Sequence record: OZ346187.1
Direction: 5' to 3' (one strand)
From: a phage
DNA length: 64,000 nucleotides
Shown here piece after piece: positions 4,069 to 33,048 of the stretch; position 1 is the first letter of the stretch; each line of letters begins with the position of its first letter. Under the pieces are notes generated by a model. The model ran no database searches and was not told the origin of the DNA. It saw nothing but the letters and a program-made list of their open reading frames with translations. Made by a program: the position numbers and the translations under genes.

Positions 4069-7000
4069 ATGAGTATGTGGAATTTTGACTTTGAGGCCTC
4101 AGGTCTTCTGGACGAGGAAGATCTTTACTACCATTGTGGCCTGTTTAAAGAGTTGAATAAAAATAATTTTATGTTGTTTTTGCCTATCAATGATAGATCT
4201 CATTACAGTGAAGAGGAGGTTGAAAAAGCAAAACAATTTATGCTGGCAAAGCAAGATATCTATCCTAGCTGCTCTGTCCGTATTGCGGATTTCAGCCAGC
4301 TTGAATGGTGGTTAACCGGGAACTCCGATTGGTCACCCACATCATTAAGTTGTCACAACTGTTTTAGTTATGACTTTATCTTGATGGAGAAGCTGTCTGG
4401 TATTCATTTTGATATGTTCCGTGATCCCAAGTGTATGGGGACAATCAATAATCATCAGGTGAACCTGTTCGACACTCTGCCAATGAGTCGTATACTATGG
4501 CCCGACAGACCGTTACCTAAAGGATGCCCTGATTCTGTATACAATCCTGTTACAAAACGTATGCAGCAGGTAGGTCCTCATGGCCTAATGGCGTGGGGGT
4601 ACGCTTTAGGAAACCAGAAGGTTAAAATTGATGACTGGAGAAATTTACCTCTGTGGAAGTATGTTGATCGTGTATTCGAGGACGTTATCATCCAGGAGCT
4701 GCTCTGGAAAGAGCTGGTAGCGGAATCAAAAGGTGTATTCTACGGCAAATCTGACATGCAGAACTTTATGTACGATCCAGCCAAAGAGAAGCCGAAAGGG
4801 TTCAAGAAGATTACCTGGAAGAATGCATTACGCCGAGGCATGCTGCAGCACTTCCTGATGGAGCTGCAGGCCCGTCAGGGTGTATACTTCGACATAGATG
4901 GAGCTATTGCTTTACGTGACCGTTGCGATGCGTGGATGAAAGAAATCGCTGATCGTGTTGAACCACAACTACCTTTAAAAGAGCTGTCAATGTCTCAGCG
5001 GCCCAAGTTCCCTGAAAAGCCGTTTAACCAAGACGGGACAATCTCTAATAATGGTTGGAAATGGTTAAAAGATAAGCTTGGCTATCCTGTAGACATGAGT
5101 GCTTTAGAGTTCAAAGCCCCGCCTAAGCGAGCATTTACCTCTACAGGAGATGTCAGCAAGATGGGGATAAAATGGTGTGAAGAGATGGGCTGCAAAGACC
5201 CCGATAAGATGGCTGATTTCTTGAGAGGCTATATTAAGGGCACCTCCACACCACAACCCTTACCTAAAGAGCTGATGGATCAGGCAATAAGTGATCTGCA
5301 GCAGAAGCGAATGCCTGACTGCAAGATACCTATGAAAATCAGCAATCAGGACGACATCAAGCGATACCTAATCAGTGCTGGTTGGCTCCCAACAATGTGG
5401 AGAACTAAAGATGTAACTAAAGACAGCAAGAAGAAAGCTTTACCTGATGCAGATGTTGATGCACGAGTATATGCATATATGGACGAGCTTTTGGAGTCAG
5501 AGTATTGTGACCTAATTATCAACTTCTGGAACAAAACTGATGCTAAGTTCCAGACAACCGTGCACAAGTTCCGAAGCTTTCCTAACTCCGAAAGGATTAA
5601 AAAGGAAGTATTCGGGAAAATACGTAGAAAAGCCAGGGCACTTATTACTTCTCCGCAACTGAAAGATACGTTTGGACACCTATGCCCAAATCTTGAAAAA
5701 TTGAACGGAGAGATGGCTAAAGATATCGTCTTGTGGTTATCATTGCGAAACCGCAGATCGGTCCTTGATCCAATCAAGGAGGATAAGGTTGATACTGGTC
5801 TTCTTAATCACCCACGTTTGAAGATTGACCATAAGCTTCCTGCTAAAAGCTCTGGATTAACAAACACTTCCAGACAGAAACACAGTATTTGTGCAAACAT
5901 GCCTAAACCATCTCCTAAAGTGGTTATGGGTAAAGAGATGCGTAGTCTGTGGGGTGTTCCTCCGGGATACTTTGAGATCGGTATTGACGGGTCCAACTTA
6001 GAGCAGCTTATCGGGGCTTGGGGTGCCTTTGAGTTCGACAACGGCCTGTATTATGATGTTGTAAGTAATGGCGATGCACACTGTTATTCAGGAGATACAC
6101 AAATTCTCACGGAGAAAGGGTGGGTGAGGTTTGAAGATCTTGATCCGGGAACACAAGTGTTCCAGTACGATCACAACACCTCGTCAATGAACCTTGTTAC
6201 TCCATTAAATTACGTTAAGCGTAGTTATTGTGGGGATATGTATCATTTCCACAACAGTAGTGTGGATTTTATGGTTACAGATCAACACAGGATGCTGACT
6301 GTGGATCACAGAAGCAATAAATTGTTTGAAGATTTGGCAAAAGACCTGAAAGCAGGTAAAGGGTCTAATTCAGGAAGAAGGTTTATCCATGCGGCAGAGT
6401 TTTATGGGAATACAACCTTATCTCCTGCCCAGGTTAATTTGCTTATTGCTATTCACGATGATGGGCACTTGCATACAAATAAGGACGGCAGCATCGTGTG
6501 CAGGATTCAGGTCGGAAAGGGAAGAAAAGTTGCAACGCTTTTAGATACTTTTTCTGCTCTAAGCCTTAGTTATGTAGAGCAGAGCGGGAAAACCACAAAA
6601 GGGGGCTTACTGGCGAGAAGGTTCCAATTCCACGTTCCGTCCTGGGTATTTGAGTTTTTGGACAACAATAAGGATTTCACCTATAACCTGATGAACCTTG
6701 ATAAAGAATCTAAAAACCTGTTTATAGCTTCTTTATCTAACTGGGACGGGTGGGTATCTTCCGAAGGTGGAAAGGTTGCTTACTACTCCCAGGCCGAGTG
6801 CAGGAAGAAATCTGTAGAGGTGGTGTCTGCGCTGGCTACTCAGTGTGGTTTACGGAATAATACGGTGGCGATTCACAAAAAAGGTCGTGCCGTGCAGCAC
6901 AGAATCACAATTGGTAGCAAACAGAGAGCAGGGTTGCTGACACTATCTAAAGAGTCTGTCGAGGTGAGCGGTTCTTTGGTTTATTGCGTTACCGTCCCTT

Positions 7001-7401
7001 CTGGAGCAATCATTGTGAGAAGGAATGGTAAAGTGGCAGTGTGCGGTAACTGTAATAACGCCAAAGCTTACTCTTCTGTAGCAGGCAAGGAGATTTCCCG
7101 TAACGATGGTAAACCTATCACGTATGGGGTTATGTATGGGGCACAAAAAGATAAAGTTGCAGATATGCTGGACATCTCCCCAGAGTTGGGACAAAGGGTA
7201 ATCGATGCACTCTGGGATGCCAACCCAGGTCTTAAGGGGCGCAAAGAGGATCTGGAGAAATTCTGGGAAGCAACAGGTAAGAAGTTTATCTACTCTTTTG
7301 ATGGTCATGCTATCTGGACCCGATCTAAACACTCTTTACTTAATGCATACCAACAAAATGGCGGTGCATCGTTGTGTGACTTAGTTGGAATACTCATGCA
7401 C
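4069..7401 (+). CDS. DNA polymerase, family A, exon 1 (contains an in-frame intein; ORF reads through to a stop at 7467 inside the intron)
   Basis: 3'-5' exo motifs FDFEASGL (Exo I) and CHNCFSYDF (Exo II); motif B-like RNDGKPITYGVMYGAQ; ORF ends ...GILMH just before the expected HDE of motif C. Confidence 0.85.
6082..7050 (+). mobile_element. intein with LAGLIDADG homing-endonuclease domain inside DNA polymerase
   Basis: Starts CYSGDTQILTEKG (intein block A), TDQHRML (block B TxxH), LAGLIDADG-like LLIAIHDDGH and LFIASLSNWDGW, ends ...VAVCGN followed by Cys (+1). Confidence 0.65.
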
Positions 7402-7737
7402 CACCAGATGGTGAAGCGTGGGTGGTACGATGAAGGTGTTCGTCGTATTATTTATTACCATAAATAACATTGTGGCTTCATAGAGTAATCTATGTCGAAT
7501 AACCTCTTTAACTGCGGGAAGCCTAAACCTTATGGCAAGGTAATCCGCAACGAAGCGCTCAAAAGAGCGAACGCTCAGAGGCCATTCCGAAAGGAAGTAG
7601 ACCAGCAAGTGCGGTCGAAATGGGAGGATTCCTGTGGTTGCTTATCATAGGAATATGAGATGGTCCGATCCTACGTGAAAACGTATGGCTATGCACGTAA
7701 TGGTGCGGGGTAGCTTAACGACCTACCTGAACTATTG
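7402..7737 (+). mobile_element. group I intron without ORF, interrupting DNA polymerase at motif C (boundaries approximate)
   Basis: P-like AACTGCGGGAAG, Q-like AATCCGCAAC, R-like CTCAGAGGCCA, S-like AGATGGTCCGATCC; joining exons gives ...ILMH-DEYQLQV. Confidence 0.6.
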
Positions 7738-15702: not shown

Positions 15703-16028
15703 CAGAGATCATCATTTCAACTGCAGGGTATGTGTTCCTGACAATCATTGCACTGACCATTTTGGTGGTGGTATATGGAATTGTTATTCTCCCTATTCTT
15801 GAGACAATTAGTTTGTGTCGGTGTTGGAGAAAGGCTTACGGTCCACAGCCGTGGAAGGACTGGCCCCACCTGGTGCACATAGCGTTCTCTTATGCTTATG
15901 ATCACGCCAGCAGTGCATGCATAACCGGGTATCACGCCCACAACTGGAGCTGGGAAGGGTTGAGGAAATGGAATGTTACAAAGACCATACCTCTGCGCAT
16001 GTACAAACCTAAAAACAAAGACAGCTGA
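15699..16028 (+). CDS. putative membrane protein
   Basis: Hydrophobic N-terminal segment YVFLTIIALTILVVVYGIVILPIL. Confidence 0.45.
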   Translation: MTEIIISTAGYVFLTIIALTILVVVYGIVILPILETISLCRCWRKAYGPQPWKDWPHLVHIAFSYAYDHASSACITGYHAHNWSWEGLRKWNVTKTIPLRMYKPKNKDS

Positions 16029-16057
16029 TACTTGAAAATCCCTGGCATATCAAGTGT

Positions 16058-16092
16058 AAGGAGGATTTCTAAAATGGATTTCCTCCTTTTGA
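16058..16092 (+). terminator. putative rho-independent terminator (AAGGAGGA ... TCCTCCTT + TTTT)
   Basis: 8-bp GC-rich stem followed by T-run at the end of the rightward gene block. Confidence 0.45.
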
Positions 16093-16344
16093 TATTTCAC
16101 CGGGCCAGATATTTTAAAATTCTTAGAAAATCAGGTCTTTGAAATGAAAAACAGATCGAGTACCGAAAGAGGATGTACAAATTTTCTGATAATAATGGAC
16201 TTATTGTTATAAAAGGTCAGAGGTAAGCTGGGAAAGTTCTGGTAGAAGGGTGAGAGTATGTGCGGAAAAATCTGGAATAGTGACTTAAAGTACGGTGCGA
16301 ACGATAAGGAATTGAGCAGCACATCTTATCGTGCCTGTATTTTG

Positions 16345-16730
16345 TGTGGATGAATGAGAATACCTATCATTGTGAGAACCATTATCATTACGGGCAATTT
16401 AACAGTACCGATTATGCGCACCACTGGCGATACATACAGGGATTGATAACATGGGTTACTGTTTACGCACATAACAATTGTATTTCTTACTATTTGTGTG
16501 GGCGTTTAGACGTTGACGGTCAGAAGTCTGCAGGTTAATATCTAATCTATTGGCTGCTAACTATATCCCACACAAATAGTAAGAAATACAATTGTTATGT
16601 GCGTAAACAGTAACCCATGTTATCAATCCCTGTATGCATGCCAGTGGTGCGCATAATGGGTATTATGTTAAATTGCCCGTAATGATAATGGTTCTCACAA
16701 TGATAGGTATTCTCATTCATCCACACAAAA
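16345..16730. repeat. long near-perfect inverted repeat (~160-bp arms 16345-16504 and 16569-16730, ~65-bp spacer)
   Basis: Arms are reverse complements; ORF-track ORFs 16344-16538(+) and 16595-16786(-) translate the same peptide (NENTYHCENHYHYGQFN) from both arms. Confidence 0.85.
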
Positions 16731-16959
16731 TAGATTGCAAATGTTGTGCCACTGTGTGAACGGCCTGGCCTATTAATTTGCCTCACTGCCTTGATATTTG
16801 AGAATTATTATAAGAATGAGAAGTATTCCCATTTCGTCCGCCTGGCAGCACTCCTGTAGGTCCTGCAAGGACTCTAGCTGAAAGCTAGACCCTTCGGGCC
16901 TCCCTGCAGGTCAGGTCAAAATCGTGGTAGAATTGGGCCTGTTCAGATATTTCTGGCTG

Positions 16960-17520
16960 ACTCTTCAGGTCTGTGTGGGAAAAGCCAACCTCTCCGGCGG
17001 GGCATGGGGTCATGACGGGAAAATTGCAGGTCAATTAAAAAATTTACGTGGTGTATGAAGCGCTCTTCAGGTAAGGCAGGTATTATGGGATGAAACCCTC
17101 TTCAGGCAATGATATTTGTGGGTGTGATATTTGCTGGAAAGCCAGATATGACGGGACTCCCGGCGGGGCAGGGGTAGTACAGACAGGGAAAATATGGAGG
17201 ATGTGGTTGGGTAAATTGATCAGGCAGGTAGAGTATGGAATATGTTACAGGTATGTTAAATAGGGAGGCTGAATATCTGTAGGATTTGTGTGTAAAATCA
17301 AAGACTTAAGTGGTGTTGTGGTATTTTCTATAAATAATTCAAGTTTAATAGGTAATATTTGTCTCTATTCGCTTTGTGTGGTAAACAGATTCAGATGAGA
17401 TTGGTTTACAAGTGTATACATAATATACAAATTAAAGATACAAGAAACCCCCCTCCCCCTTCGGCTACCATTCACCTTTTCCTCTGACTGGTACTTAAAC
17501 ACTTATTCAGACTCTTCAGG
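16960..17520. repeat. dispersed direct repeats: 4x CTCTTCAGG and 2x CTCC(C)GGCGGGGCA-GGGT...GGGAAAAT
   Basis: CTCTTCAGG near 16962, 17062, 17098, 17512; longer repeat at ~16992-17024 and ~17157-17193. Confidence 0.6.
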
Positions 17521-17870
17521 TTATCACCCATATATCATATGGCAGTGACTGGTGTCCTCCGGCCCCTCTTTCGTCACCCGTCCGCTTCGCCATGCTAATG
17601 CCATAGCCAATGGTTCGGTTGTTCACCCTGTTCACTCAGGTGTATCTCCATACCCCTTCAAACCGAAGAGAACAGAAAACCCGAATTACTCGGTAAAAGA
17701 AAAGAGAAGAACTTAATTTTATCAGGATAGGCAAGAATGTCAAGGCATGACTGCTCACTAAACAAGCAAACAGTCATGTGTGGAAGGTAAGTGATTGTGG
17801 TGGTAGGAAATTTAGTTGAAAGATGTGTTATAGGTGCTTCCAGCACTTTAGCCGGGCAGCTAATTGTGTG

Positions 17871-18086
17871 TCAGTCCAGCGGTTCATCCTCTACTTCACT
17901 GAAATCAATGTTCATGGTCTCTTCCCAACCATCGATCTCAGCACAAGAGTGGAGTTCTTTAGGGTTTACTCCCAAAGCCTCAGCAACAGAGTCTATATTT
18001 AACACCTCTGGCAGGTATGATTCATCGAATTCAAGGTAAATCAGGCCACGAGTGTTGTCAGCTCCACCAAATATCTCTATCTTCAT
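17871..18086 (-). CDS. hypothetical protein (acidic)
   Basis: ORF-track ORF, last gene of the leftward block. Confidence 0.4.
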   Translation of the reverse strand: MKIEIFGGADNTRGLIYLEFDESYLPEVLNIDSVAEALGVNPKELHSCAEIDGWEETMNIDFSEVEDEPLD

Positions 18087-18207
18087 GAAATCTCCTCTGG
18101 AAATGAGAGTGTGAACAGGGTTTTATACGTTCTAATGCACAGGAATTATACACGTTTGCCTCTTCAGGCCATGCTTTAGCATGAGGAACCTGTGTGGGCT
18201 CGGTGCT

Positions 18208-18420
18208 TCATAGTCTACCACCTCTGAACTCTTCGTGCTCAGGCATAATAGAGAACCAGATATCTACGATGTCCTCCCACGTCAGGTCATCAGCCTCAGG
18301 ATCTGTCTGGGACGAAGATGAAGAGTCCTCAGAATCTAAGTTTTCCTCTTTAACTGGCTCATCCAAGGGACATATGGTCACTCCTTCGGATGTCTCTTCA
18401 GATGCATGTGTGTTGATCAT
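18208..18420 (-). CDS. hypothetical protein (acidic)
   Basis: ORF-track ORF. Confidence 0.4.
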   Translation of the reverse strand: MINTHASEETSEGVTICPLDEPVKEENLDSEDSSSSSQTDPEADDLTWEDIVDIWFSIMPEHEEFRGGRL

Positions 18421-18727
18421 GTTCCCCCCGTGAGTATTCCGGCAACAGCCGCTATGGAAGTAATGATCATCAGGATCACCACTAAAACTTCAGACAATGT
18501 TCTCATTGTGTATTCCATATTCTCCAAACTGTGTGTGGATACTATCACGGGAGCGGTAATGTGTCAACAGCAACGCCGCGAGGGTTTGGTTAAAATCCGA
18601 GCGTATGGTGATTTGGGTCAAAACGGACGTGCGTTCTCGCTACGCTCGAAATATGGAGTTGTTTGTAGGGAGCTCTTAAACGCTCTGTAATGAGATTAAC
18701 TGCCCAAGGTATGCAATCGTGCACCAG

Positions 18728-18756
18728 ATAAAGAAAAGGACGCCACAGAGCGTCCT
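18728..18756 (-). terminator. putative terminator hairpin AGGACGC-N6-GCGTCCT + T-rich tail
   Basis: Perfect 7-bp stem downstream of ORF 18781-19092. Confidence 0.5.
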
Positions 18757-18780
18757 AGGTGTCTTAAATTTGATATTTTG

Positions 18781-19092
18781 CTATACCCACGAGGGCTTAT
18801 CAAGGTTGGAGTAGCTGAAAGGTGTCAAAAGGTGACTGTCAAAATCTCTCAAACTATCCAAATCTTTTTCCTCGTCCTGACACCATCTGTGCCTACATTT
18901 GTTGTTGTAGTGCATGGAATGCATAGCGTTCTGCAACTTAACAGGCACAAGTGATTCAGGAGTAGATAGTATTGTTGGGTATGCCAGAACCACCTCAAAC
19001 AGTGGAAACACATCGAAACTAAAGTCTACCTCTGCAGAGGTTGATGGCATGTAGGAGTATTTAGCCGCCTTTGTAGACATAATCCACCTCAC
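18781..19092 (-). CDS. hypothetical protein
   Basis: ORF-track ORF. Confidence 0.45.
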   Translation of the reverse strand: MRWIMSTKAAKYSYMPSTSAEVDFSFDVFPLFEVVLAYPTILSTPESLVPVKLQNAMHSMHYNNKCRHRWCQDEEKDLDSLRDFDSHLLTPFSYSNLDKPSWV

Positions 19093-19415
19093 ACAGGTTT
19101 GATAATACCTTCACCGAATAGCTCTTCGTATCTAATCTTGTCCGGATCCCACTCTTGGATAATTTCGAAGACAATATCCAACCCAGGGATAATCACTTCT
19201 CCAGTGTCAAGTTTGGCAAGAACAAAACCAGAAGGCTGAATGGTTTCCCAGTTGCGCCGATTGGAATAGAAGACCTCGAAAATATCGCCGACCTTTATCT
19301 GTTGATCAAGATGTTCAAGATTCTCTTTCATATAGACGCAGCGGATTTTTCGTGCAGGCCATAGACCACCTGCATCACGTTCATTTAGCTCTTTTACAGT
19401 AATCGGTATACCCAT
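19089..19415 (-). CDS. hypothetical protein
   Basis: ORF, 4-nt overlap with downstream gene. Confidence 0.5.
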   Translation of the reverse strand: MGIPITVKELNERDAGGLWPARKIRCVYMKENLEHLDQQIKVGDIFEVFYSNRRNWETIQPSGFVLAKLDTGEVIIPGLDIVFEIIQEWDPDKIRYEELFGEGIIKPV

Positions 19416-19435
19416 CTCAAATCTCCTTCATAGAT

Positions 19436-19466
19436 AGTAAAAAGAGGGGCCCAAGCCCCCCTCTTT
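19436..19466 (-). terminator. rho-independent terminator (GGGGC-CCAA-GCCCC core stem, T-run on minus strand)
   Basis: GC stem-loop flanked by A-run/T-run between ORFs 19471 and 19415. Confidence 0.55.
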
Positions 19467-19470
19467 GTCA

Positions 19471-19776
19471 TTATTCTACAGAGCGTTTGAACAGAATGTC
19501 TGCCTCAGACATGTGCTCAACCTCTTCTTCGATTTTAGCGCGACGTTTTTCAGCCTCATAGCGAATATCGAACTCGGTAGCCACCAGAGATTTGATGAAT
19601 TTAGGAGAATACAGGTGATCCTGCTTCTCAACGAGAATGATATCCTTAATGGCATCTTTCAGATCTTTAATCTGAAGTTGGAGTTCTACCAGTTCTTCGA
19701 TTGTTTTGCGAAGGCGATCACGCTCTGCAGTGTCAGAAGGAAGAGAGGTGAACAGTTCAACTTTAGATTTAGCCAT
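19471..19776 (-). CDS. hypothetical protein (predicted coiled-coil)
   Basis: ORF with AGGAGA RBS; heptad-like charged pattern. Confidence 0.5.
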   Translation of the reverse strand: MAKSKVELFTSLPSDTAERDRLRKTIEELVELQLQIKDLKDAIKDIILVEKQDHLYSPKFIKSLVATEFDIRYEAEKRRAKIEEEVEHMSEADILFKRSVE

Positions 19777-19804
19777 AGTAAGAGTCTCCTTATGTTGTTT
19801 TAAA

Positions 19805-20056
19805 TTAACGTTCTACAAAAATACCGTTCAGTTCAATAACCAGGAATTTCTGGTCTTCACTATCGTCTCGTGCCAGCACCTCACAGACGTATCGGTCATC
19901 CCCATCATCATCGCAGTAAAATACAAGACTGAGGACTTTATCATGGTAAACCTTCGCAACTACCGCCTCGTAAGTATTGCCGATTGTGAATCCAAGATAA
20001 TCTCCGATGCATTTGACAACAACATGGTCTCCAGCATTTAAGTCAATCTTCGTCAT
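19805..20056 (-). CDS. hypothetical protein
   Basis: ORF-track 19805-20122; internal ATG at 20056 with RBS is the more likely start. Confidence 0.5.
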   Translation of the reverse strand: MTKIDLNAGDHVVVKCIGDYLGFTIGNTYEAVVAKVYHDKVLSLVFYCDDDGDDRYVCEVLARDDSEDQKFLVIELNGIFVER

Positions 20057-20211
20057 TACTGCGCTCCTTGGGTAATAATACTGTATGTAAAACTTTAACC
20101 AGAGATGTGAATAACGCCCCAAAACACACCGATAGCGCTAAAACAGACAAGGCCATCATTAAAGCTTCAGTAAAATCAGTCATTCCTCACCTCTTGTTAG
20201 TCACTATACTA

Positions 20212-20475
20212 TCATTTATCCTTGTCGTCAAGAACTTTTTTAAATCTTTCAGGGATATCTCCCGTTCTTAGATAGTTCATGACCTCGCAAGGTTCCCACT
20301 TGAATTTCTTACAGAGCAGGGCGGCTGAGATTGTTTCATTGCGAAAAGAAAGGATATTAATATCCCACTCTGAGAACCCCAACTTCCGAAGGGTAGCTAC
20401 AGAAATCCTCACCGCAACCCAGCAGCAAAAACATGCAACAAACGCCACTGCTACAACCCACATCAGGATGTTCAT
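20212..20475 (-). CDS. putative membrane protein
   Basis: N-terminal hydrophobic helix MNILMWVVAVAFVACFCCWVAV. Confidence 0.45.
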   Translation of the reverse strand: MNILMWVVAVAFVACFCCWVAVRISVATLRKLGFSEWDINILSFRNETISAALLCKKFKWEPCEVMNYLRTGDIPERFKKVLDDKDK

Positions 20476-20564
20476 ATAAGCACCTTACTGAAATACAAGA
20501 CACAGTGTTAAGGTTACTGACCAGCAAATAATTAACAGTGCCGTTGCAACCTTGGCAAGATTTA

Positions 20565-22623: not shown

Positions 22624-22864
22624 AAGGGGTCATGAACGAATAAACGGCATCATCATCTGCTTCAGGGAATGCTCCCAAAGACTTCATGTCTGAGCCCTTG
22701 ACAAATACAAGGTTTTGATCAAAAGCTTCTTGAGGATCAATCCGATACATATTTCGTAGAATATCGCCTACCTCCTCATCAAGAGGTGAGTATGCTGTGC
22801 ACGTTTTTCCGATCAAGCTTTGAGAATCAGGGTATCCACCTGAAGTTTTAAAATAAACAATCAT
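22601..22864 (-). CDS. hypothetical protein
   Basis: ORF-track ORF. Confidence 0.45.
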   Translation of the reverse strand: MIVYFKTSGGYPDSQSLIGKTCTAYSPLDEEVGDILRNMYRIDPQEAFDQNLVFVKGSDMKSLGAFPEADDDAVYSFMTPFEAMVVG

Positions 22865-22955
22865 ATAGTATCACCTCTGGTAAGAGATTGGGATTCCTTT
22901 CCCACAAATAATTACAAACCTTCCTTATCGAGGAAGTATGCTAATCCAAGCAGGA

Positions 22956-23225
22956 TTATTCCTCTACAATCTCATACACATCCGGAGTTACAATCAACTC
23001 TTCTCCGTTACCCGGTGCAACAAACACCACCATGCCTTCAGGTGTGTGCTTTTTAGCCATCTCGATAACATCTTCTCGCAGAGCTGGCTCCATCAGATCA
23101 AAACCTTCACCCAGGGCATCACGAACCACCTTCATATAGTCAACTGGTTGTGCTTCGACAATCATACCTTCAACCAGTCCACAGTTTTTGTCTGCCAGCT
23201 CAGTTTTGAATAATTTAATTTTCAT
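22956..23225 (-). CDS. hypothetical small acidic protein
   Basis: Starts MKIKLFK, ends EIVEE. Confidence 0.5.
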   Translation of the reverse strand: MKIKLFKTELADKNCGLVEGMIVEAQPVDYMKVVRDALGEGFDLMEPALREDVIEMAKKHTPEGMVVFVAPGNGEELIVTPDVYEIVEE

Positions 23226-23362
23226 TTAGAGGTCTCCTCAATTATTTGATATTAATAGCCGTAACCTAACACATTAACTACAACTGCGATTGCAAACATA
23301 ATTTCAAAGCATGCAATCTCTACATTTGGAACTAATTTCTTGATCACACCCATTGTAGCACC

Positions 23363-23680
23363 TCATTCTCTAAAGTCAATCTTTACTTTGCCTTTCCCCT
23401 TACCTTTCTTTCCACCGCATTTAGCCAGTTGACGTGCTGCAACATCTACCATACGGTCAGTTGCCTCGTAAGCATCACTGCCTTTAGCTTTGGCAATAAC
23501 TTCTTTTCCAGAATTGTCAAAAATGAACGCCATAACTTCCTGGTGATCATTTTCAACTTTTACACTCACACGTGCATAGTTGGCAGAGGGATGCAAACGC
23601 TCCAGCTTAGACATTTTGTGGGAAATGAAAGACACCATACCTTCAGTGATTTCTACGTTGCCAGTGATTTCAATTTGCAT
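23363..23680 (-). CDS. hpf: ribosome hibernation promoting factor / RaiA-family protein
   Basis: MQIEITGNVEITEGM...VSVKVEND...AKAKGSDAYEATDRMVDVAARQLAK aligns by eye with E. coli HPF (MQLNITGNNVEITEAL...ASAEGQDMYAAIDGLIDKLARQL). Confidence 0.7.
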   Translation of the reverse strand: MQIEITGNVEITEGMVSFISHKMSKLERLHPSANYARVSVKVENDHQEVMAFIFDNSGKEVIAKAKGSDAYEATDRMVDVAARQLAKCGGKKGKGKGKVKIDFRE

Positions 23681-23762
23681 AACGTGTTCCTTTTAAAGAA
23701 GAGGGAACCAAACCCTCTTTGAAAACAATGATACTAAATCTGAAGCGTTGTGTCAACAGTTT

Positions 23763-24053
23763 TTACAGATTGTTGTCGATAGTTTTTAAAATATCCACAG
23801 CAAGATCTGCCATTTTTCGAACATACTCTGCAAACTCAACAGGATCCTTGATCAAAGAATTCACAGGGTCGTACCCTAGAGCGTTCAAAATGGCTGCAGC
23901 ATCTACAACCTTCTCATCATTTGCGAAGATCTCTCCATCAAACTTGTAGGTCCATTTTGAGTCAATCTTGGCAGGGAATGATTGGTCAACGCTTGTTACA
24001 CCATCCTTTTTAAACGCTCCGGTGTTATCAGTGTCTAGAACTAAATCCATCAT
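23763..24053 (-). CDS. hypothetical protein
   Basis: ORF-track ORF. Confidence 0.5.
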   Translation of the reverse strand: MMDLVLDTDNTGAFKKDGVTSVDQSFPAKIDSKWTYKFDGEIFANDEKVVDAAAILNALGYDPVNSLIKDPVEFAEYVRKMADLAVDILKTIDNNL

Positions 24054-24070
24054 GTTAGTACCTCACCGTT

Positions 24071-24469
24071 TCAGTTTAGCTTTTCTTCAACAACCCCATA
24101 GCTCGGGACAGAGTCAAGAGCTTTCTGGTTTAAAAGTGGTGTAGCAGAATCTGCAAACGGTGTCCAAGTTTTTGTTCTGGCATTCCAGTAATGCTTCACT
24201 CTGGAATCTGGATGCACTATAACAAAAACTTTTTCACTTGTCAACACATTAATTTCTTCTACACCCTTGCTGATAATTTCTCCGTCATAGCCACCAGTCT
24301 GGTATCCTTCGTACCAGGTTCTTGCATATGCATAGCCAGCCTGCCAGCATGCAGCCTCCTCCGAGGTGGAGACTACGTAGAAGTCTTTCTCAAATTCTGG
24401 GATACGCCCTTGCTTTACGCTCCAAGCTCCGCGAATTTTCATTGTAACTTTGAACAGTTTATTTTTCAC
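24071..24469 (-). CDS. hypothetical protein (paralog of 21869-22264)
   Basis: Shared motif pattern with ORF 21869-22264. Confidence 0.5.
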   Translation of the reverse strand: MKNKLFKVTMKIRGAWSVKQGRIPEFEKDFYVVSTSEEAACWQAGYAYARTWYEGYQTGGYDGEIISKGVEEINVLTSEKVFVIVHPDSRVKHYWNARTKTWTPFADSATPLLNQKALDSVPSYGVVEEKLN

Positions 24470-24481
24470 AACGGTTACCCA

Positions 24482-24736
24482 TCACAGCTCTACAATCTCT
24501 GCATCTGACCCTGCCCCAAAGGCATAATAGGATTCTTCCCCGAAATAATATTCCGGTGCACCAGCAGCGATCAGGTCTGATCCCAAGATAAACACCACGT
24601 TGTGGCCTACATAACTGTGATGTTGCCGCACAGGATCATCCCACGGCAACCCTTCAAAGTATACCGCAGGAACGACCTTTCCCTTCAGGAAGGATTGTCC
24701 CAAGTAGACGTTAGAATCAAGAATTTTAACCTTCAT
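24482..24736 (-). CDS. small acidic protein, MKVK-family paralog
   Basis: MKVKILD start, GSDLIAAGA motif, acidic C-terminus EIVEL. Confidence 0.5.
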   Translation of the reverse strand: MKVKILDSNVYLGQSFLKGKVVPAVYFEGLPWDDPVRQHHSYVGHNVVFILGSDLIAAGAPEYYFGEESYYAFGAGSDAEIVEL

Positions 24737-24953
24737 TCTCGTCCTCCACTATCTCTACATCCTCACCAAGGGCAAAGTTGTAGGTCCACTGGCTGTCAAA
24801 GCAGTCCTGAGATGCACCAGCGGAAATAAGATCTGCACCTTTTATTTTTAAAAGGTCAGGATAATCTTCGTTAGGGATAGCGGTAAACACTTTCCCCACT
24901 AAGGGCTCCTGACCAATATAGAAGCTTGAATCTAAAACTTTAACTTTCATCAA
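24726..24953 (-). CDS. small acidic protein, MKVK-family paralog
   Basis: MMKVKVLD start, KGADLISAGA motif, EIVEDENEG tail. Confidence 0.5.
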   Translation of the reverse strand: MMKVKVLDSSFYIGQEPLVGKVFTAIPNEDYPDLLKIKGADLISAGASQDCFDSQWTYNFALGEDVEIVEDENEG

Positions 24954-25237
24954 CGGTCTCCCTCAGGCGGTTGTGGGACGTAAACACTGTTACGAATATC
25001 GTCAGCAGTGTAGTAATAAGTGGTTCCAACCCTATCTCGGGCTGCAATGTACTCTGCTATACCAATAAGTGCCATTGATTTGGTGGCGTATCTTCCCCAC
25101 TCGTTAGCTCCCCAGTAGAATTTAGACCAGTAGGGAATAATACCGAACAAATATACCTTTTGACGAACTTCCCAGTAAGTGCCTTTTCCGACAAGTTTAA
25201 ACTCTACTTCACTACTGTTAATCTTTTTCATTATCAA
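24950..25237 (-). CDS. hypothetical protein
   Basis: ORF-track ORF. Confidence 0.5.
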   Translation of the reverse strand: MIMKKINSSEVEFKLVGKGTYWEVRQKVYLFGIIPYWSKFYWGANEWGRYATKSMALIGIAEYIAARDRVGTTYYYTADDIRNSVYVPQPPEGDR

Positions 25238-25530
25238 TCTCCCTCTACCGTGGTCGGATTGTCAGTAAGAAATTGAGCATTGGCTGGAGGCACGCCTGAC
25301 ATTTTCCACACAACCATAAGTTTGTAACCAGGAACTCTATTAAGTGCAGATCGAGTAGAGTTTGTGCACGTATACTTTCGCTTTCCAAACCCGTTCTCCA
25401 TCATAATCCAGTACCCAGTATCTTTGTCACCAGGTATCGGTAGACCACCTTCATCAACCCACTGAATGGACCACGGCACGATGGCTACAGCTTTATATTT
25501 AAACTTTTTAAACCACTCAAAAAGTTTCAT
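25234..25530 (-). CDS. hypothetical protein
   Basis: ORF-track ORF. Confidence 0.5.
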   Translation of the reverse strand: MKLFEWFKKFKYKAVAIVPWSIQWVDEGGLPIPGDKDTGYWIMMENGFGKRKYTCTNSTRSALNRVPGYKLMVVWKMSGVPPANAQFLTDNPTTVEGD

Positions 25531-25625
25531 AATTCAGCCTCGCATAGACATAATCACTATAAACAGGCAAACAATGAATCCGAATGCCACGCCACCCATA
25601 AACGTTAATATTGATGCAATCATAG

Positions 25626-25811
25626 TCAATCAGCCTCGCTTGGCAACTCTTCTACCTTAACATGCCGAAAAGTGTTACCGTAATGGTTGATCCATGACAT
25701 CAGCTCGCTTTCTTGCTCTTCCTCTGGGATGAACTCTCGAATGCTGACAAGTTTTAAGAAAACCCAATCACAATCTGCACCCATTCTACCAGACAGGCAA
25801 TAGTGCTTCAT
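25626..25811 (-). CDS. hypothetical protein
   Basis: ORF-track ORF. Confidence 0.4.
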   Translation of the reverse strand: MKHYCLSGRMGADCDWVFLKLVSIREFIPEEEQESELMSWINHYGNTFRHVKVEELPSEAD

Positions 25812-25829
25812 AAAACCCCCCCACCTGGT

Positions 25830-26024
25830 TTAGAATATTGCTTCTTCCATTGCACCTGAGAGCAACAAAGAGGTGATCTGGCTAACATTCATCTCAGACT
25901 CTACTTCCTCCCCTTTGAAAGGTTCGCGGCAGAATAGGACTGTTTCAGGACTTTTACTTCGAACAATATAATACAAATCATTCAATGTGTTGTAGTAATA
26001 AGTGTTAAAACGTAAGTTTTTCAT
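25830..26024 (-). CDS. hypothetical protein
   Basis: ORF-track ORF. Confidence 0.4.
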   Translation of the reverse strand: MKNLRFNTYYYNTLNDLYYIVRSKSPETVLFCREPFKGEEVESEMNVSQITSLLLSGAMEEAIF

Positions 26025-26308
26025 TTTCTAGTCCCCTTCTTAGATTTTTGTGTAGAAACGCTTTCTGCAATACGAGACAAACGTTCTTCTGAAGCCTTGC
26101 CTATTCCAGGTTTTTTGAGTGGGTTATCTTTATGACCACAATCCAATTGGATATTGGATACCTCTCCAACCTTGTAAGTCAATTCTAGCAAAAGGTTGTC
26201 GTCCTTGTCAAATGTTCTTACGATAAATTTTTTATCGTTCTCCTGAACTTCGTATCGGGTACCCGCAGTATACAACATGGTGCCATCCGCATAGGATATC
26301 CAGATCAT
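26021..26308 (-). CDS. hypothetical protein
   Basis: ORF-track ORF. Confidence 0.45.
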   Translation of the reverse strand: MIWISYADGTMLYTAGTRYEVQENDKKFIVRTFDKDDNLLLELTYKVGEVSNIQLDCGHKDNPLKKPGIGKASEERLSRIAESVSTQKSKKGTRK

Positions 26309-26652
26309 TGAACCTCCTTCTGCTGCAACAGCATTAACTCTTTGTTGGAGATTTTTACTGCTGTTTTTATTGTTCCATCTTCACGAAACCACGACCAGAA
26401 CTCTACAGTGTCCCCACTGTCAAGCAAAGCATACCCGTGGTAGAAGTCTTTGTCCTTAGACAGTTTCTCATCTATGTCTGCATCGACACATTCGTGATCC
26501 ATAGCATTTTGCCTGAATGCATCGGTTATACCAATGCACGCCTTGCTCTCAAGACTGGTATATCCGATATCTTTTAATTCAGTTTCCCAAGTCCAGTACC
26601 CTATAAAAGCTAAAACAGCTACCCACATTAATAACGTTTTAATCTTTGGCAT
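26305..26652 (-). CDS. putative secreted or membrane-anchored protein
   Basis: N-terminal hydrophobic segment LLMWVAVLAFIGYWTW. Confidence 0.45.
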   Translation of the reverse strand: MPKIKTLLMWVAVLAFIGYWTWETELKDIGYTSLESKACIGITDAFRQNAMDHECVDADIDEKLSKDKDFYHGYALLDSGDTVEFWSWFREDGTIKTAVKISNKELMLLQQKEVQ

Positions 26653-26714
26653 TCTCTCTACCTCTTTCTTAGTTTATTTCACTATGGCACATCCTTTGTG
26701 CCATATCTCAACCA

Positions 26715-27176
26715 CTACTTAAATAGTAGTCCAAAATAGTGCAAAATTAACAGAAGTTGAACTACACCTAGTGCAACGGCGAGTATGTTAATCTTAGAAT
26801 CGAAAAACTTCTTAACTTTTACTCTAAAAGGTTCCTTAATGTCCTTTACGATCCTATTTATAGATGATTTCATATCCCTGATTACCATCCTAAACATTAG
26901 AGACGGATCTTCCTTCTCTGTAATAGAATCGAAAACATACTCTCTTCGGTCATAAGGACCTCCAGATCTGCGTATTAACCTCTCCACAGAGACCTCGTAC
27001 GACACACCTGTAACGTAATCATCTATGATAAGTAGTGACGGGTCTTTATCGTCCAAGGGTATTAAAGTTATCTTTCCAGATTTTGTTAAAATTTCTCCTT
27101 TTTCAAGCAAGGTGTACCAATGCTCTCTACCAAGATTGTTGAGGCACGTTTTTACATATTTAACAAACATCGTCAC
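26715..27176 (-). CDS. putative C-terminally membrane-anchored protein
   Basis: C-terminal hydrophobic helix ILAVALGVVQLLLILHYFGLLF. Confidence 0.45.
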   Translation of the reverse strand: MTMFVKYVKTCLNNLGREHWYTLLEKGEILTKSGKITLIPLDDKDPSLLIIDDYVTGVSYEVSVERLIRRSGGPYDRREYVFDSITEKEDPSLMFRMVIRDMKSSINRIVKDIKEPFRVKVKKFFDSKINILAVALGVVQLLLILHYFGLLFK

Positions 27177-27376
27177 CCCTCATAGCACGTCTGATATAAC
27201 CACTCTATGAAATCTTGATACCATTCGCCCTCTGAGCGCTCCGTAGGCCAATAATCTTCACCCTCTCGTGCATTAAAATCTGAGTATTCAACTTTCCACT
27301 CCTTTACCAGCTCGTGGAGAAGGTTTTCAGCCTGCTCTAAAGATTTATTTTTTGCCATTGCTGTCTCCTTTTTCAA
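27173..27376 (-). CDS. hypothetical protein
   Basis: ORF-track ORF. Confidence 0.4.
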   Translation of the reverse strand: MKKETAMAKNKSLEQAENLLHELVKEWKVEYSDFNAREGEDYWPTERSEGEWYQDFIEWLYQTCYEG

Positions 27377-27577
27377 GATAGTTATACATCAGAACTGCAC
27401 CACCTAAGATGGCTACCAGTAACAATATCCCAGATAGCATCTCAATAAACATGGCTTGAAACACTGGAAGGTCTCCCTAAATTAACGCACCATTTTAAAT
27501 ACATGCTCTTTTCCCATAAAGGTGCCTGGCTAAGATCTGCGTAGAACGCAATCTCTTTAAGAACAGTATAGATAGTT

Positions 27578-27805
27578 TTAGGTGCGGTCTCCATCCCTAC
27601 TCTCCTTCCTGATATTCTTGTAGTAATCAACTAGGCACATTATTACGATGAAGATAACAACAGGCCAAAAAGGTGCAGCAGTGATGATGGTGATAAAATC
27701 ATCAAACTTCACCCTTCGTCTGGACACGATGCATACACCTGTCAAGAATACCGCTGTTATAACGGACATTACCAGGTAACCTATTAGCACAACATTTATA
27801 CTCAT
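27578..27805 (-). CDS. putative small membrane protein
   Basis: ORF-track 27578-27895; internal ATG at 27805 gives a protein with two hydrophobic helices. Confidence 0.4.
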   Translation of the reverse strand: MSINVVLIGYLVMSVITAVFLTGVCIVSRRRVKFDDFITIITAAPFWPVVIFIVIMCLVDYYKNIRKESRDGDRT

Positions 27806-27836
27806 TGGTCCTCCCCTTTGTAGGTTAAATTGTATA

Positions 27837-28370
27837 CTACAAATGGTCGCTGAGGGTGTCAAGAAAATTATCCCGTTCTTTCTCAGAGTTTTCATGTGTG
27901 TAGCTGAAAAACATATCGAGAATAACCTTATTGATATATTCCAGCTCCTCTGTGTTCAGATGCTTAGCAGGATCTACAATGACATCCCAAATATCATACA
28001 GACCACACTCATGATACCCATAACGCCACTCAATTGTCAAGCTGAGCGGCAAATCTTTACCGTCACAAACAACCTTCCATCTACATATGTTGGTATCTGG
28101 TCGTACCTGTGCACGGTACACCTGTACAAAATCCAATTTGAATTTGAGGTACTCGTCATACAATTTAAGCACAAAGCTCTCGATTTGTGGAGACACTTTT
28201 GCAGCAAACTGTGCGTATTTGTACTTGCACTGGATGATCTTTCTGCGTTTTGCAGTTAAATTTTTTGCCGCCAGTTGTTCTTCAGTGTATCTCCACCTAC
28301 GATCAACAAACGCAACAGGGTCTTTGTCCCCATAGAGGTCTTCCCAGTTAATCAGAAGCATACCTGTCAC
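27837..28370 (-). CDS. hypothetical protein
   Basis: ORF-track ORF. Confidence 0.5.
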   Translation of the reverse strand: MTGMLLINWEDLYGDKDPVAFVDRRWRYTEEQLAAKNLTAKRRKIIQCKYKYAQFAAKVSPQIESFVLKLYDEYLKFKLDFVQVYRAQVRPDTNICRWKVVCDGKDLPLSLTIEWRYGYHECGLYDIWDVIVDPAKHLNTEELEYINKVILDMFFSYTHENSEKERDNFLDTLSDHL

Positions 28371-28600
28371 TCCTCCACAACTTCAAGGCCTTTACCGCCT
28401 CGCTCTGGCAGATTACTTAAAGATAGGTAATACATATAATCAGGAGAGATCCTGCCAGACTCTGCACCTGCAGCTAGTAAATCCTTCCCTTTAACCAGGA
28501 CAACATTCTCGTTTGCAGATAGCCGTTTTGCTTCCACAATTTTACCAACACAGTCAACCAAGGAAGGGTACCCTAAATCTGTAAGAAATTTAACTTTCAT
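28367..28600 (-). CDS. small acidic protein, MKVK-family paralog
   Basis: MKVKFLTD start, KGKDLLAAGA motif, ends LEVVEE. Confidence 0.5.
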   Translation of the reverse strand: MKVKFLTDLGYPSLVDCVGKIVEAKRLSANENVVLVKGKDLLAAGAESGRISPDYMYYLSLSNLPERGGKGLEVVEE

Positions 28601-28637
28601 GCTACCTCCTACCTACCATCCCTGGTAAGATAAATTA

Positions 28638-29036
28638 TTACTGAACAGAGCGCGGTGCTGGGAAGGATAACTCTTCTAAAGAGAAGATTTCATTTCCTAC
28701 CACCCAAGTTGCTGGGTCATCTGGATCAACAGGTTGGATAATCATTACCTCATCAGCCTCGCACACACGTTTCCCACCCATAGTAGCGTCAGCCACTAAC
28801 ATACGCGGCTCTTCAGAAATGCACAGGTAGCCACCTCGGCCCACTGTTCCTTCCACGGGATCCTGCCCTTTGACCACAATGAATACCTTCTCTCCTGTGG
28901 CGATATTACTTTTCACACTAACAGTTTGACCAACTTTAGATGTACCGATCTTGGTGGCTTCAAACATTAAATCCCGAATTACTGTTGCATAGTTGCCGGA
29001 CACTTTCTTACCTTCTTTAGTAATCTCAATCTTCAT
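28638..29036 (-). CDS. hypothetical protein
   Basis: ORF-track ORF. Confidence 0.5.
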   Translation of the reverse strand: MKIEITKEGKKVSGNYATVIRDLMFEATKIGTSKVGQTVSVKSNIATGEKVFIVVKGQDPVEGTVGRGGYLCISEEPRMLVADATMGGKRVCEADEVMIIQPVDPDDPATWVVGNEIFSLEELSFPAPRSVQ

Positions 29037-29272: not shown

Positions 29273-29308
29273 AAATGACCCCCTCTTGTTGAAAACAACA
29301 ATACACAA

Positions 29309-30123: not shown

Positions 30124-30140
30124 GCAAATCTCCAGATCAT

Positions 30141-30164
30141 AAAAGCCCTCCGAAGAGGGCTTTA
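30141..30164 (-). terminator. rho-independent terminator GCCCTC-CGAA-GAGGGC flanked by A/T runs
   Basis: Perfect 6-bp GC stem + tetraloop between ClpP-like gene and methyltransferase. Confidence 0.6.
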
Positions 30165-30174
30165 GAATTAATGT

Positions 30175-33045: not shown

Positions 33046-33048
33046 CAA

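Follow-up and report, generated by a model that had tools for sequence, protein, structure and literature searches.

The closest described counterparts of the locus studied here are signals beside sites of chromosome cutting, origins primed by a transcript, and a phage-encoded RNA. In phage lambda, cosB carries the terminase-binding repeats R1 to R3 next to cosN, and in T7, arrays of short repeats, reportedly described by Dunn and Studier in 1983, are said to flank the terminal repetition at the concatemer junction. Origins primed by an R-loop or a transcript include ColE1 RNA II, the mitochondrial LSP-CSB II system, T4 oriF and oriG, and the primary origin of T7; human CSB II reads G6AG8. The rV5-like phages are widely isolated and have been used in therapy and biocontrol cocktails. 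PhiTE, a member of the Vequintavirinae, carries a pseudo-ToxI RNA, a non-coding transcript that acts in trans against host systems and is built as a tandem repeat of ~36 nt mimicking a known antitoxin (PMC3475682). The map of rV5 published in 2013 shows a "non-coding" box, and its authors anticipated bidirectional termination at the junction of genes 163 and 164; the only place where they located expected terminators was between genes 26 and 27 (PMC3606486). Direct terminal repeats (DTRs) of 458/459 bp have been reported (PMC6563267, PMC7471380).

The window that we analyzed, a 64,000-nt stretch of record OZ346187.1, is the genome of a Vequintavirus, an rV5-like phage of E. coli. We focused on positions 16843 to 17870, between the DTR and the last leftward gene, a region matched by at least 120 Vequintavirus records. 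This kilobase sits at a junction of convergent transcription, that of rV5 genes 163 and 164, with the genes converging on the site, and it lies without annotation in most relatives' records among those listed. It falls within the non-coding box of the rV5 map (PMC3606486). That box, roughly 2.5 kb long, has never been dissected since 2013. The retained part of the DTR spans 16494 to 16842 (unstranded), and its right boundary is the physical chromosome end, between 16842 and 16843 (GCC followed by TGGCAGC). We mapped this boundary from HdK5 and bov11CS3, and the phage's own ends are inferred by homology. HdK5 has the same 459 bp at both ends, positions 108-459 of its DTR align with 16494-16842 of the window, and the bov11CS3 record stops exactly at the equivalent of 16843. 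The left DTR boundary is absent from the studied genome. KPP-1, a phage of a different genus, also has its DTR inside a convergent non-coding gap (PMC9862379). Directly outside the boundary lies an indel-prone, unstranded segment of low identity and many gaps (16843-16935; mean pairwise identity 0.60-0.64, gaps 25-31%, flanks about 0.95). The rest of the region is organized in three modules, one G-rich on the + strand (16936-17300), one AT-rich (17325-17447), and one near-invariant (17448-17709). The kilobase is a conserved, essentially protein-free stretch beside a physical chromosome end.

The initial annotation had noticed a 9-bp box, CTCTTCAGG, occurring four times and a longer unit occurring twice about 165 bp apart, and had proposed conservation among related phages as a check. 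Both repeats are there. We found exact copies of the box at 16961-16969, 17063-17071, 17098-17106 and 17512-17520, all on the + strand, and a fifth clustered copy, also +, at 18160-18168. The 64-kb window contains 7 copies where 0.52 would be expected, a count that none of 100 shuffles reached. The five clustered copies occupy homologous positions in 13 of 16 relatives; FV3, IMG16 and gut30 each lack one. The repeats greatly exceed chance expectation, and on the proposed check they are conserved in evolution. Their spacing is irregular (102, 35 and 414 nt). Box 1 is followed 2 nt later by TGTGTGGG and box 3, 10 nt later, by TGTGGGTGTG; box 4 is inside the near-invariant module, and box 5, in the gap between the first two leftward genes, is followed by TGTGTGGG 22 nt later. 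The conserved G-rich module (16936-17300, +) combines CTCTTCAGG boxes, TGTGKGG boxes and two G-tract units; its + strand GC skew rises to +0.5, and a leftward transcript of it would be C-rich. The G-tract units are the longer repeat, which we placed at 16990-17024 (CTCTCCGGCGGGGCATGGGG...GGGAAAAT, +) and 17157-17193 (CTCCCGGCGGGGCAGGGG...GGGAAAAT, +). Their core, CCGGCGGGGCA(T)GGG, is a 15-nt repeat with copies 93% identical and 166 nt apart. The 3′ half of unit 1 is variable and is gone in 9 of 13 aligned relatives; unit 2 is conserved and has a counterpart, CCCTCCGGGCGGGGGAGGGGTGGG, in PVP-SE1. Tandem Repeats Finder (score 30) detected no tandem repeats in 16000-18300. A reading of the boxes as -35-like elements was rejected, since on inspection only the 17098 and 18160 copies of CTCTTCAGG have a -10-like hexamer at a usable distance. 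As DnaA boxes, the TGTGTGG motifs give only 1-mismatch matches to a relaxed consensus.

We then compared the corresponding loci of PVP-SE1 (Seunavirus), KPP-1 (Mydovirus) and CR3. Arrays of CTTCAGG recur in PVP-SE1 and KPP-1, two of the three other genera examined, and the same comparison found no boxes in CR3. The non-coding region of PVP-SE1 holds 5 copies (0.5 expected), and their relative orientation matches that in the window. In KPP-1, 2 copies that agree in side and orientation stand about 200-310 bp beyond the DTR, and 2 more, inverted, lie within it. TGTGTG and G runs are likewise present in both non-coding regions in the same relative orientation, and the G-tract unit recurs in PVP-SE1. 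These shared motifs suggest, at the level of sequence, a cis element that several genera of the subfamily have in common. The homologue of rV5 gp153 was rejected as an anchor for the region; the gene is located elsewhere in Seunavirus and Mydovirus.

Similar to the arrays of lambda cosB and T7, the boxes are short, share one orientation within about 100-300 bp of a putative end-cutting site (at 119, 221 and 256 bp from the boundary that HdK5 and bov11CS3 imply for the DTR), and lie in non-coding DNA conserved among relatives. Unlike those arrays, they are irregularly spaced and have further copies 670 and 1320 bp away from the chromosome end, and their sequence is unrelated to the lambda R sites or the T7 heptamers. 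A terminase recognition site should lie beside a chromosome end; given the inferred DTR boundary, these boxes do, as do those of KPP-1 (PMC9862379). A single box-binding protein is not obvious, because the spacing is irregular, one box is in the near-invariant block and another between genes, and CR3 has none. At the other DTR boundary, relatives carry a different array, of TGTCA heptamers.

Next to the G-rich module is the AT-rich tract (17325-17447, unstranded, 25% GC), which is indel-prone and variable in sequence and constant in composition. Its description in the initial annotation, at ~17330-17440, is borne out: that stretch has 25.2% GC, which is the 0.1 percentile of 110-nt windows. 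Among 120-nt stretches of the window, only one is more AT-rich than the tract. Its GC content stays at 24-31% in 19 of 19 sequences, four of them merely 52-59% identical to the window there, and the nearest box of the CTCTTCAGG cluster is 220 nt away.

The strongest signal of the region is not the repeats; it is an ultra-conserved, putatively promoter-driven block at 17448-17815. Identity over 17440-17790 is at least 97% in 119 records. Windows within 17469-17768 are 98-100% identical pairwise, compared with 83-99% for the flanking genes, and few stretches of the 4 kb compared are as conserved as the 260-nt block. We consider 17448-17709 on the - strand a candidate non-coding RNA of about 262 nt, with a predicted transcription start as its 5′ end and a G5AG6 run (C6TC5 on the + strand, 17448-17459) as its 3′ end. 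There are only 11 variable sites among 20 sequences, and conservation drops sharply at two edges, the G run and the predicted start. Immediately upstream is a sigma-70-type promoter (17743-17716, -) with TTGACA, a 16-nt spacer and TGn-TAAAAT, which is near consensus, with 11 of 12 matches plus the extended -10 TG. In L015, the most divergent relative, the spacer has gained 2 nt and differs at 8 of its 16 positions, and the hexamers and the TG are unchanged. The candidate RNA gene has its own promoter, and this is conserved as a promoter. Strong promoter matches in the window are oriented like the local genes in 32 of 32 cases. Conservation continues upstream of the promoter (17744-17815, unstranded) over a stretch with an inverted repeat, CATGACTG/CAGTCATG, at 17746-17753 and 17771-17778. 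L015 has 7 changes in these 70 nt versus 3 in the 260 nt of the predicted transcript, which is about 8 times less variable. No intrinsic terminator (a hairpin with a U tract) was found at the proposed 3′ end, 17440-17460, and relatives do not keep the U tract past the G run. Just one site resembles a terminator, a weak hairpin of 5 bp located 17-29 nt past the predicted start (17693-17681).

The folding potential of the block depends on the strand. The 5′ domain of the candidate RNA (17621-17698, -) is predicted to form an imperfect 30-bp hairpin with a minimum free energy (MFE) of -29.3 kcal/mol (z = -3.8; 0 of 200 shuffles equally stable); the + strand folds differently and more weakly, at -16.5 kcal/mol. 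For the whole block the MFE is -82.7 kcal/mol on the - strand versus -53.8 on the +, with a z-score for the whole RNA of only -1.4. The predicted fold is closed by a helix between the 5′ and 3′ ends and contains 16 G.U pairs, which would become C.A mismatches on the opposite strand. Six of the 11 variable sites fall in predicted unpaired positions, one keeps its pair (U.G to U-A), two form a compensatory change from C-G to U-A, and two break pairs. That compensatory pair (columns 97:128) is the only one in the covariation check, a result reached by 24 of 500 shuffles, and 73 of 85 pairs are invariant.

Searches for relatives of the block outside the genus returned none. In Rfam 15, no family reached its gathering score in the region, and at an E-value limit of 5 the stretch 16000-18300 gave two spurious sub-threshold matches, both outside the block. 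A tRNA/tmRNA scan found none in the region. By blastn, with the E limit raised to 1, the block matched Vequintavirus only; profiles built from the block and from the G-rich module found nothing with nhmmer in the PVP-SE1, KPP-1 and CR3 loci at E up to 100, and none of 5,426 E. coli genomes matched the block. When metagenome contigs were scanned with 18-mers, most matches were due to chance, with true relatives at 5 of 95 loci. The results listed in a literature search on Vequintavirus transcription or small RNAs held nothing relevant. A hammerhead ribozyme in CCUGAAGAG, which contains CUGANGA, was rejected: there was no family match at E up to 5, and on inspection the core pairing fails, with a G-G pair closing helix II. 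The candidate resembles pseudo-ToxI of PhiTE in being a non-coding transcript, here a predicted one, from an intergenic locus of a virulent rV5-like myophage. It differs in having no tandem repeat, no Rfam similarity and no match in E. coli DNA; a ToxI-like antitoxin array was rejected, with no tandem repeats of about 34-36 nt in 16000-18300. Since the block has no detectable homologue outside the genus, no Rfam family and no E. coli match, no function can be transferred to it. On the sequence evidence, the block is probably a so far unannotated gene for a non-coding RNA of ~260 nt.

According to the initial annotation, the region has no credible ORF of 60 codons or more, and we agree, as the candidates are broken or change non-synonymously in relatives. 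The longest ORFs in 16843-17870 encode 62 aa (17658-17846, -, GTG start), 57 aa (17090-17263, +), 54 aa and 49 aa. The 62-aa ORF crosses the promoter, and one relative has a 2-nt insertion that breaks it; in relatives, frameshifts or stops also interrupt the 57-, 49- and 44-aa ORFs. In the 54-aa ORF, 7 of 8 substitutions are non-synonymous. In the 17448-17846 block, the two main candidate ORFs have 7 of 9 and 7 of 8 non-synonymous substitutions and a third gains a stop, so the block has no coding signature. The description of the kilobase as non-coding holds for this block and is less certain for the ORF at 17090, whose codons 1-35 show a synonymous excess. The initial annotation had regarded repeats within small coding sequences as evidence against it; one CTCTTCAGG box does lie within these 35 codons, which define a possible micro-ORF (17090-17194, +, MKPSSGNDICGCDICWKARYDGTPGGAGVVQTGKIW...) whose frame is lost past about codon 35 in many relatives. 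The putative microprotein sequence is MKPSSGNDICGCDICWK....

The explanation that we prefer, with about even confidence, is an essentially protein-free control region just inside the chromosome end that combines cis-acting signals with a new non-coding RNA gene. The 16936-17300 module would function at the DNA level, offering an array of binding sites to the machinery that recognizes and processes the chromosome end, such as the small terminase subunit at a cosB- or pac-like site. The same module may double as a Rho-loading zone, because it is C-rich in leftward RNA, and would then halt leftward transcription before the end. Similar to Rho-dependent terminators, which have C-rich, G-poor rut regions, both converging directions run into DNA whose transcript in that direction would be C-rich (+ strand GC skew of +0.5 at 17000-17300 and -0.37 at 17400-17600). 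Unlike Rho rut sites, which are degenerate, the module has exact 9-mers, and Rho loading leaves 260 invariant bases unexplained. The AT-rich tract would be a spacer between the DTR-proximal module and the RNA gene. From the extended -10 promoter, host RNA polymerase would make the ~262-nt RNA (17709 to 17448, -), and the helix closing its 5′ and 3′ ends may define a stable, probably trans-acting molecule.

Several other explanations bear on the same observations. Part of the region might encode microproteins, with the repeated ATGAARCSCTCTTCAGG being the duplicated start of small ORFs, and a 12-codon ORF (17055-17093) overlaps the ORF at 17090 through ATGA, as in coupled genes. Codons 1-35 of the latter have 9 synonymous and 8 non-synonymous distinct substitutions (9/17), against synonymous shares of 38-72% in control genes and 6-31% in four unrelated frames of the same stretch, and these 35 residues are near-constant in 14 genomes. 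An antisense frame sharing wobble positions with this ORF scores similarly, with 8 of 16 synonymous. The sample is small (P about 0.01-0.04 by a binomial estimate), roughly half of the relatives lose the frame past about codon 35, and many tblastn matches need two pieces. The putative ribosome-binding stretch is variable, there is no relative outside the genus, and the ORF has no PHROG family, whereas a neighboring 71-aa gene has one. Microproteins would also account for at most 2 of the 5 boxes, and not for the 17448-17709 block. We consider this explanation improbable. The idea that the kilobase is a leftover without function, relaxed DNA where genes converge, with repeats produced by chance or slippage, would fit the variable, indel-prone 16843-16935 and 17325-17447. 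It is contradicted by the conservation data and we give it almost no credence: the CTCTTCAGG count is far above chance, the boxes keep their positions across the genus and recur in two other genera, and the 260-nt block ranks with the most conserved DNA compared. The conserved block might instead work as double-stranded DNA, as a packaging site or the site of a DNA-binding regulator. The block is 600-870 bp from the mapped chromosome end and holds a CTCTTCAGG box, conservation runs 70 nt upstream of the promoter and includes the inverted repeat, and the RNA covariation is statistically weak. Yet conservation has its edge right at the predicted transcription start, the transcribed part is far less variable in L015, and the promoter elements are selectively kept. 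The potential to fold belongs to the strand that the promoter would transcribe and depends on the 16 G.U pairs, and protein sites rarely need 260 invariant bases. A DNA site is unlikely in our estimate, and equally so the notion that the promoter match merely opens or marks it.

A replication origin was implied by the initial annotation, and it is disfavored by the cumulative GC-skew maximum and the convergent transcription at the site. An iteron-type origin was rejected, as the boxes are 9 bp and irregularly spaced, with no phased repeats of ~17-22 bp. In a transcription-primed (R-loop) origin, the RNA that host polymerase starts at 17709 would stay on its template and prime a T7-like replisome, which we judge to have a small chance of being correct; the G-rich RNA ending in G5AG6 would be hybridized to its C-rich template beside the AT-rich unwinding tract, a detail that we hold just as doubtful. 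The order of elements matches that of known R-loop origins: a strong promoter, a G-rich transcript (+ strand skew of -0.37), the G5AG6 run exactly at the conservation edge, and then 120 nt of AT-rich DNA whose composition is kept despite 52-59% sequence identity. Phages of the rV5 type encode a primase-helicase and a Pol A-type polymerase and no RNA polymerase (PMC3606486). The position, in contrast, is not that of an origin. Genes converge at a cumulative GC-skew maximum, and a leftward primer would meet the chromosome end within about 600 nt. The skew minimum (about 56 kb), divergent promoters and the AT-richest spot of the window (20% GC at 58366) lie at 56-58 kb. In addition, 260 near-invariant nt exceed the needs of an R-loop spacer, and the boxes are not helically phased iterons (102- and 35-nt spacings). 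In a more speculative version, which we rate slightly lower again, the 262-nt RNA would form a persistent R-loop and prime DNA synthesis or recombination, by which the terminal repeats would be regenerated or joined. It is similarly a long shot that the CSB II-like G5AG6 run would hold the RNA on its template at the edge of the AT-rich tract. If true, this would be a primer of the mitochondrial or ColE1 style in a virulent phage whose replisome is of the T7 type and which encodes no RNA polymerase.

The placement of the control region we favor beside a chromosome end offers a guide for engineering, namely, which DNA to keep when deleting or inserting near the ends, and for correct genome orientation and annotation. 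It also points to experiments on end cutting and on the role of a candidate non-coding RNA transcribed early by the host enzyme. Just left of the region, a 395-bp palindrome is present, and left of the palindrome a 109-aa protein is encoded; contigs with this protein show the standard gene order only.

The region at 16843-17870, flagged earlier from sequence alone as a repeat-rich, non-coding kilobase, is real and functional; what that function is, we infer. A search with 16300-18100 matched 122 phage records at 90 to 99% identity, all of them from Vequintavirus, the rV5-like E. coli myophages. Nineteen matching GenBank records (MG0656xx, e.g., L009 and L011) are named "Campylobacter phage," at the same 90 to 99% identity as the E. 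coli vequintavirus records; the two we fetched are marked UNVERIFIED and have no annotation. These host labels are probably wrong. To the left of the region, + strand genes stop at 16028, and to the right, - strand genes start at 17871-18086, so this is a convergent intergenic gap. Most records among the matches listed have no annotation in this stretch. The map of rV5 already shows it as a grey box, noted as non-coding (PMC3606486); in the rV5 record, the gap from ORF 164 to ORF 163 is 2.6 kb. The authors of the rV5 paper had expected genes 163 and 164 to be separated by a bidirectional terminator, but the one convergent junction at which they could locate such terminators was the other, genes 26/27; they also placed a GC-skew change at 104425-105475 (PMC3606486). 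We found no earlier description of the content of this box in the literature searched.

Terminal redundancies of 458 bp were reported by Korf et al. for the vequintaviruses HdK5 and EdH4 (PMC6563267), and for Gotham, Dias et al. described terminal repeats of 459 bp, with packaging that starts at a fixed point (PMC7471380). In the HdK5 record, both ends are identical across 459 bp, and positions 108-459 of this direct terminal repeat (DTR) align with 16494-16842. The right DTR boundary falls at 16842|16843, reading ...CGTCCGCC|TGGCAGC, and the bov11CS3 record terminates exactly at the equivalent position. This places the region directly after the DTR, as a sub-terminal kilobase adjoining it. 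For the window genome itself, we take the boundary from these relatives. In KPP-1, a Klebsiella phage of the genus Mydovirus, the DTR, published as 514 bp (PMC9862379), also lies within a convergent non-coding gap. The left DTR boundary of standard vequintaviruses has an array of (T/G)TGTCA heptamers in front of it (L007, ~3000-3031; L006, ~28477-28506; also L005/L004) and is cut within a palindromic TGTCA|GACA, while the right boundary lies within GCC|TGGC.

Our first alignment covered 16494-20500 in 13 diverse vequintaviruses; a later set of 19 sequences included metagenome relatives. Compared in this way across related phages, as the initial annotation had suggested, conservation is modular. 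An indel-prone segment at 16843-16935 (identity, 0.60 to 0.64) is followed by a conserved module at 16936-17300, mostly at 0.88 to 0.97 apart from the 3′ half of the first of two G-tract units (unit 1, 16990-17024), which is missing in 9 of the 13 aligned vequintaviruses. Next comes a variable AT-rich tract at 17325-17447, which had been pointed out before and at 25% GC indeed stands at the 0.1 percentile of the window. The most conserved windows of the 4 kb compared lie at 17469-17768 (0.98 to 1.00), with flanking genes at 0.83 to 0.997. All 119 records are at least 97.2% identical over 17440-17790. In L102, a metagenome relative, identity falls to 52% in the AT-rich tract, 4 positions differ across 17460-17709, and divergence resumes past ~17815.

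The conserved block (17448-17709, - strand) is a probable new promoter-driven non-coding RNA gene of ~260 nt. A near-consensus sigma-70 promoter on the - strand has TTGACA at 17743-17738, a 16-nt spacer, and TGnTAAAAT ending at 17716. The window has 32 strong matches to promoters, all co-directional with local genes, so a match of this kind carries meaning in this genome. Among full-length relatives, L015 diverges the most; its spacer has 2 extra nt and changes at 8 of the 16 positions, yet the TG and both hexamers are retained unchanged. Variation is seen at 17710, 17711, and 17715, whereas 17709 and everything downstream are conserved, so conservation begins where transcription is predicted to start. 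It ends at a C6TC5 run at 17448-17459 (G5AG6 in the RNA) that shows length slippage only. Between them, 17461-17709 has 11 variable sites in 20 sequences. Three ORFs overlap these sites; the substitutions are non-synonymous in 7 of 9 and 7 of 8 cases or create a stop, and the block is thus non-coding.

The - strand of the block folds at -82.7 kcal/mol, versus -53.8 for the + strand. The z-score of the whole molecule is only -1.4; that of the 5′ domain, a 30-bp hairpin at 17621-17698, is -3.8. The consensus fold pairs the first 11 nt with the last 11 preceding the G run. On this fold, six variable sites are unpaired, one changes U.G to U-A, two break pairs, and the remaining two make a compensatory C-G to U-A pair in L015. 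Since this was the single covarying pair, and 24 of 500 shuffles matched it in a control, we present the fold as a proposal. The region matches no Rfam family, the block had no match in a search of E. coli sequences, and we detected no homologue of it outside Vequintavirus.

The order of promoter, G-rich RNA, G5AG6, and AT-rich tract has the look of a transcript-primed origin, and the tract holds 24 to 31% GC although its sequence has diverged to 52 to 59% identity. Such an origin is unlikely here, however, as genes and strong promoters converge on the region and cumulative GC skew peaks at it. The skew minimum is at ~56 kb, and no other 120 nt in the window are as AT-rich as those at 58366 (20% GC), in a divergent promoter region; with these features, ~56000-58500 is the better origin candidate. 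Protein coding is another alternative. It had been claimed that no ORF of at least 60 codons is credible, and this stands: the longest have 62, 57, 54, and 49 codons, three of the longest are interrupted in relatives, and nearly all substitutions in the 54-codon ORF are non-synonymous. An ORF at 17090 might encode a microprotein, given that its first 35 residues are kept in 14 genomes and that its distinct substitutions are 9 synonymous versus 8 non-synonymous (three control genes, 38 to 72% synonymous; four unrelated frames of the same stretch, 6 to 31%). But about half of the relatives lose the frame past ~codon 35, the ORF has no PHROG family whereas the flanking 71-amino-acid gene has one, and nothing similar to its product was found outside Vequintavirus. 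A microprotein could also explain two of the repeat boxes at most.

These boxes and the longer units bear out the initial annotation, whose observation as a whole (repeats, longer unit, AT-rich tract, lack of ORFs) was confirmed. The 9-nt motif CTCTTCAGG occurs exactly at the four sites expected, 16961, 17063, 17098 (boxes 1 to 3), and 17512, all on the + strand, and a fifth + strand copy is at 18160. The window has 7 copies versus 0.52 expected; the other two, also exact and on the + strand, are far from the cluster, at 42207 and 43074. The longer unit is present twice, at 16990-17024 and 17157-17193, 166 nt apart and with a 15-nt core that is 93% identical. We found no tandem repeats in the region. 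The five clustered boxes keep their homologous positions and strand in 13 of 16 relatives, and the other three miss one copy each. In standard genomes, copies are confined to this side of the DTR.

Box arrays are common to two of the three other genera examined. The non-coding gap of the Salmonella phage PVP-SE1 (Seunavirus) is enriched in the CTTCAG(G) core, with 5 copies (0.5 expected) that keep the same relative orientation. In KPP-1, two copies lie beyond the DTR on the corresponding side, at distances of ~200 and ~310 bp, and two inverted copies lie within it; the core is absent from the Cronobacter phage CR3. In the window genome, PVP-SE1, and KPP-1 alike, boxes are often followed by TGTGTG(G) within 2 to 22 nt. 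G runs are on the same strand as the boxes, and PVP-SE1 CCCTCCGGGCGGGGGAGGGGTGGG is near the window's unit. Since the regions are otherwise not alignable, the common motifs have been kept by selection. Boxes 1 to 3 lie 119 to 256 bp from the chromosome end in a single orientation, resembling in both respects terminase recognition arrays such as lambda cosB, and the array may be a candidate for that role. The box module is C-rich in the leftward RNA, a composition that would fit a Rho-dependent stop to transcription of the long block of leftward genes before the chromosome end. TGTGTGG itself is over-represented in the window (33 copies versus 9.7 expected) and frequently comes after CTTCAGG, in PVP-SE1 and KPP-1 too. 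Its + strand copies at 16495, 16972, 17375, 17777, 18191, and 18532 are ~400 bp apart in the sub-terminal region, and rV5, APECc02, and Alma conserve their positions; a second cluster is at 55804-58730.

Next to the region lies a near-perfect 395-bp palindrome (16338-16732), whose arms, 16338-16502 and 16567-16732, are inverted copies of each other on either side of a 64-nt center. It sits at the junction of a deletion that sets this genome apart from all other vequintaviruses. Compared with APECc02, 22664-34614 is missing from the window. These ~12 kb comprise small genes on the + strand, the non-coding kilobase on the left, and the initial 107 bp of the DTR together with the left DTR boundary, TGTCA|GACAAG. 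We found no match across the junction in ~120 phage records, and 8 further contigs with the adjacent gene had the standard gene order only. The arms have common derived states, yet each carries private changes (divergence at ~5 positions), so the palindrome is not a fresh assembly artifact. Its inner junction makes use of an inverted repeat of 9 bp that is native to the DTR and lies inside it, TTGTGTGGG/CCCACACAA. Standard relatives (L117-L124, locus ~4331-5346) have another ~1 kb without called genes downstream of a 109-amino-acid gene, which ends at 16028 in the window; the deletion begins inside that stretch.

Elsewhere in the window, Rfam detected a group I intron at 7452-7687 (64.7 bits), and ~1 kb at 6082-7077 has no APECc02 counterpart, inside the stretch corresponding to the DNA polymerase gene of that phage. 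A cluster of seven tRNA genes lies at 60743-61555. For one of them, 61212-61310, ARAGORN gives a four-base anticodon, "atcc," without an amino acid assignment, and Rfam scores it as a tRNA at 35.5 bits.
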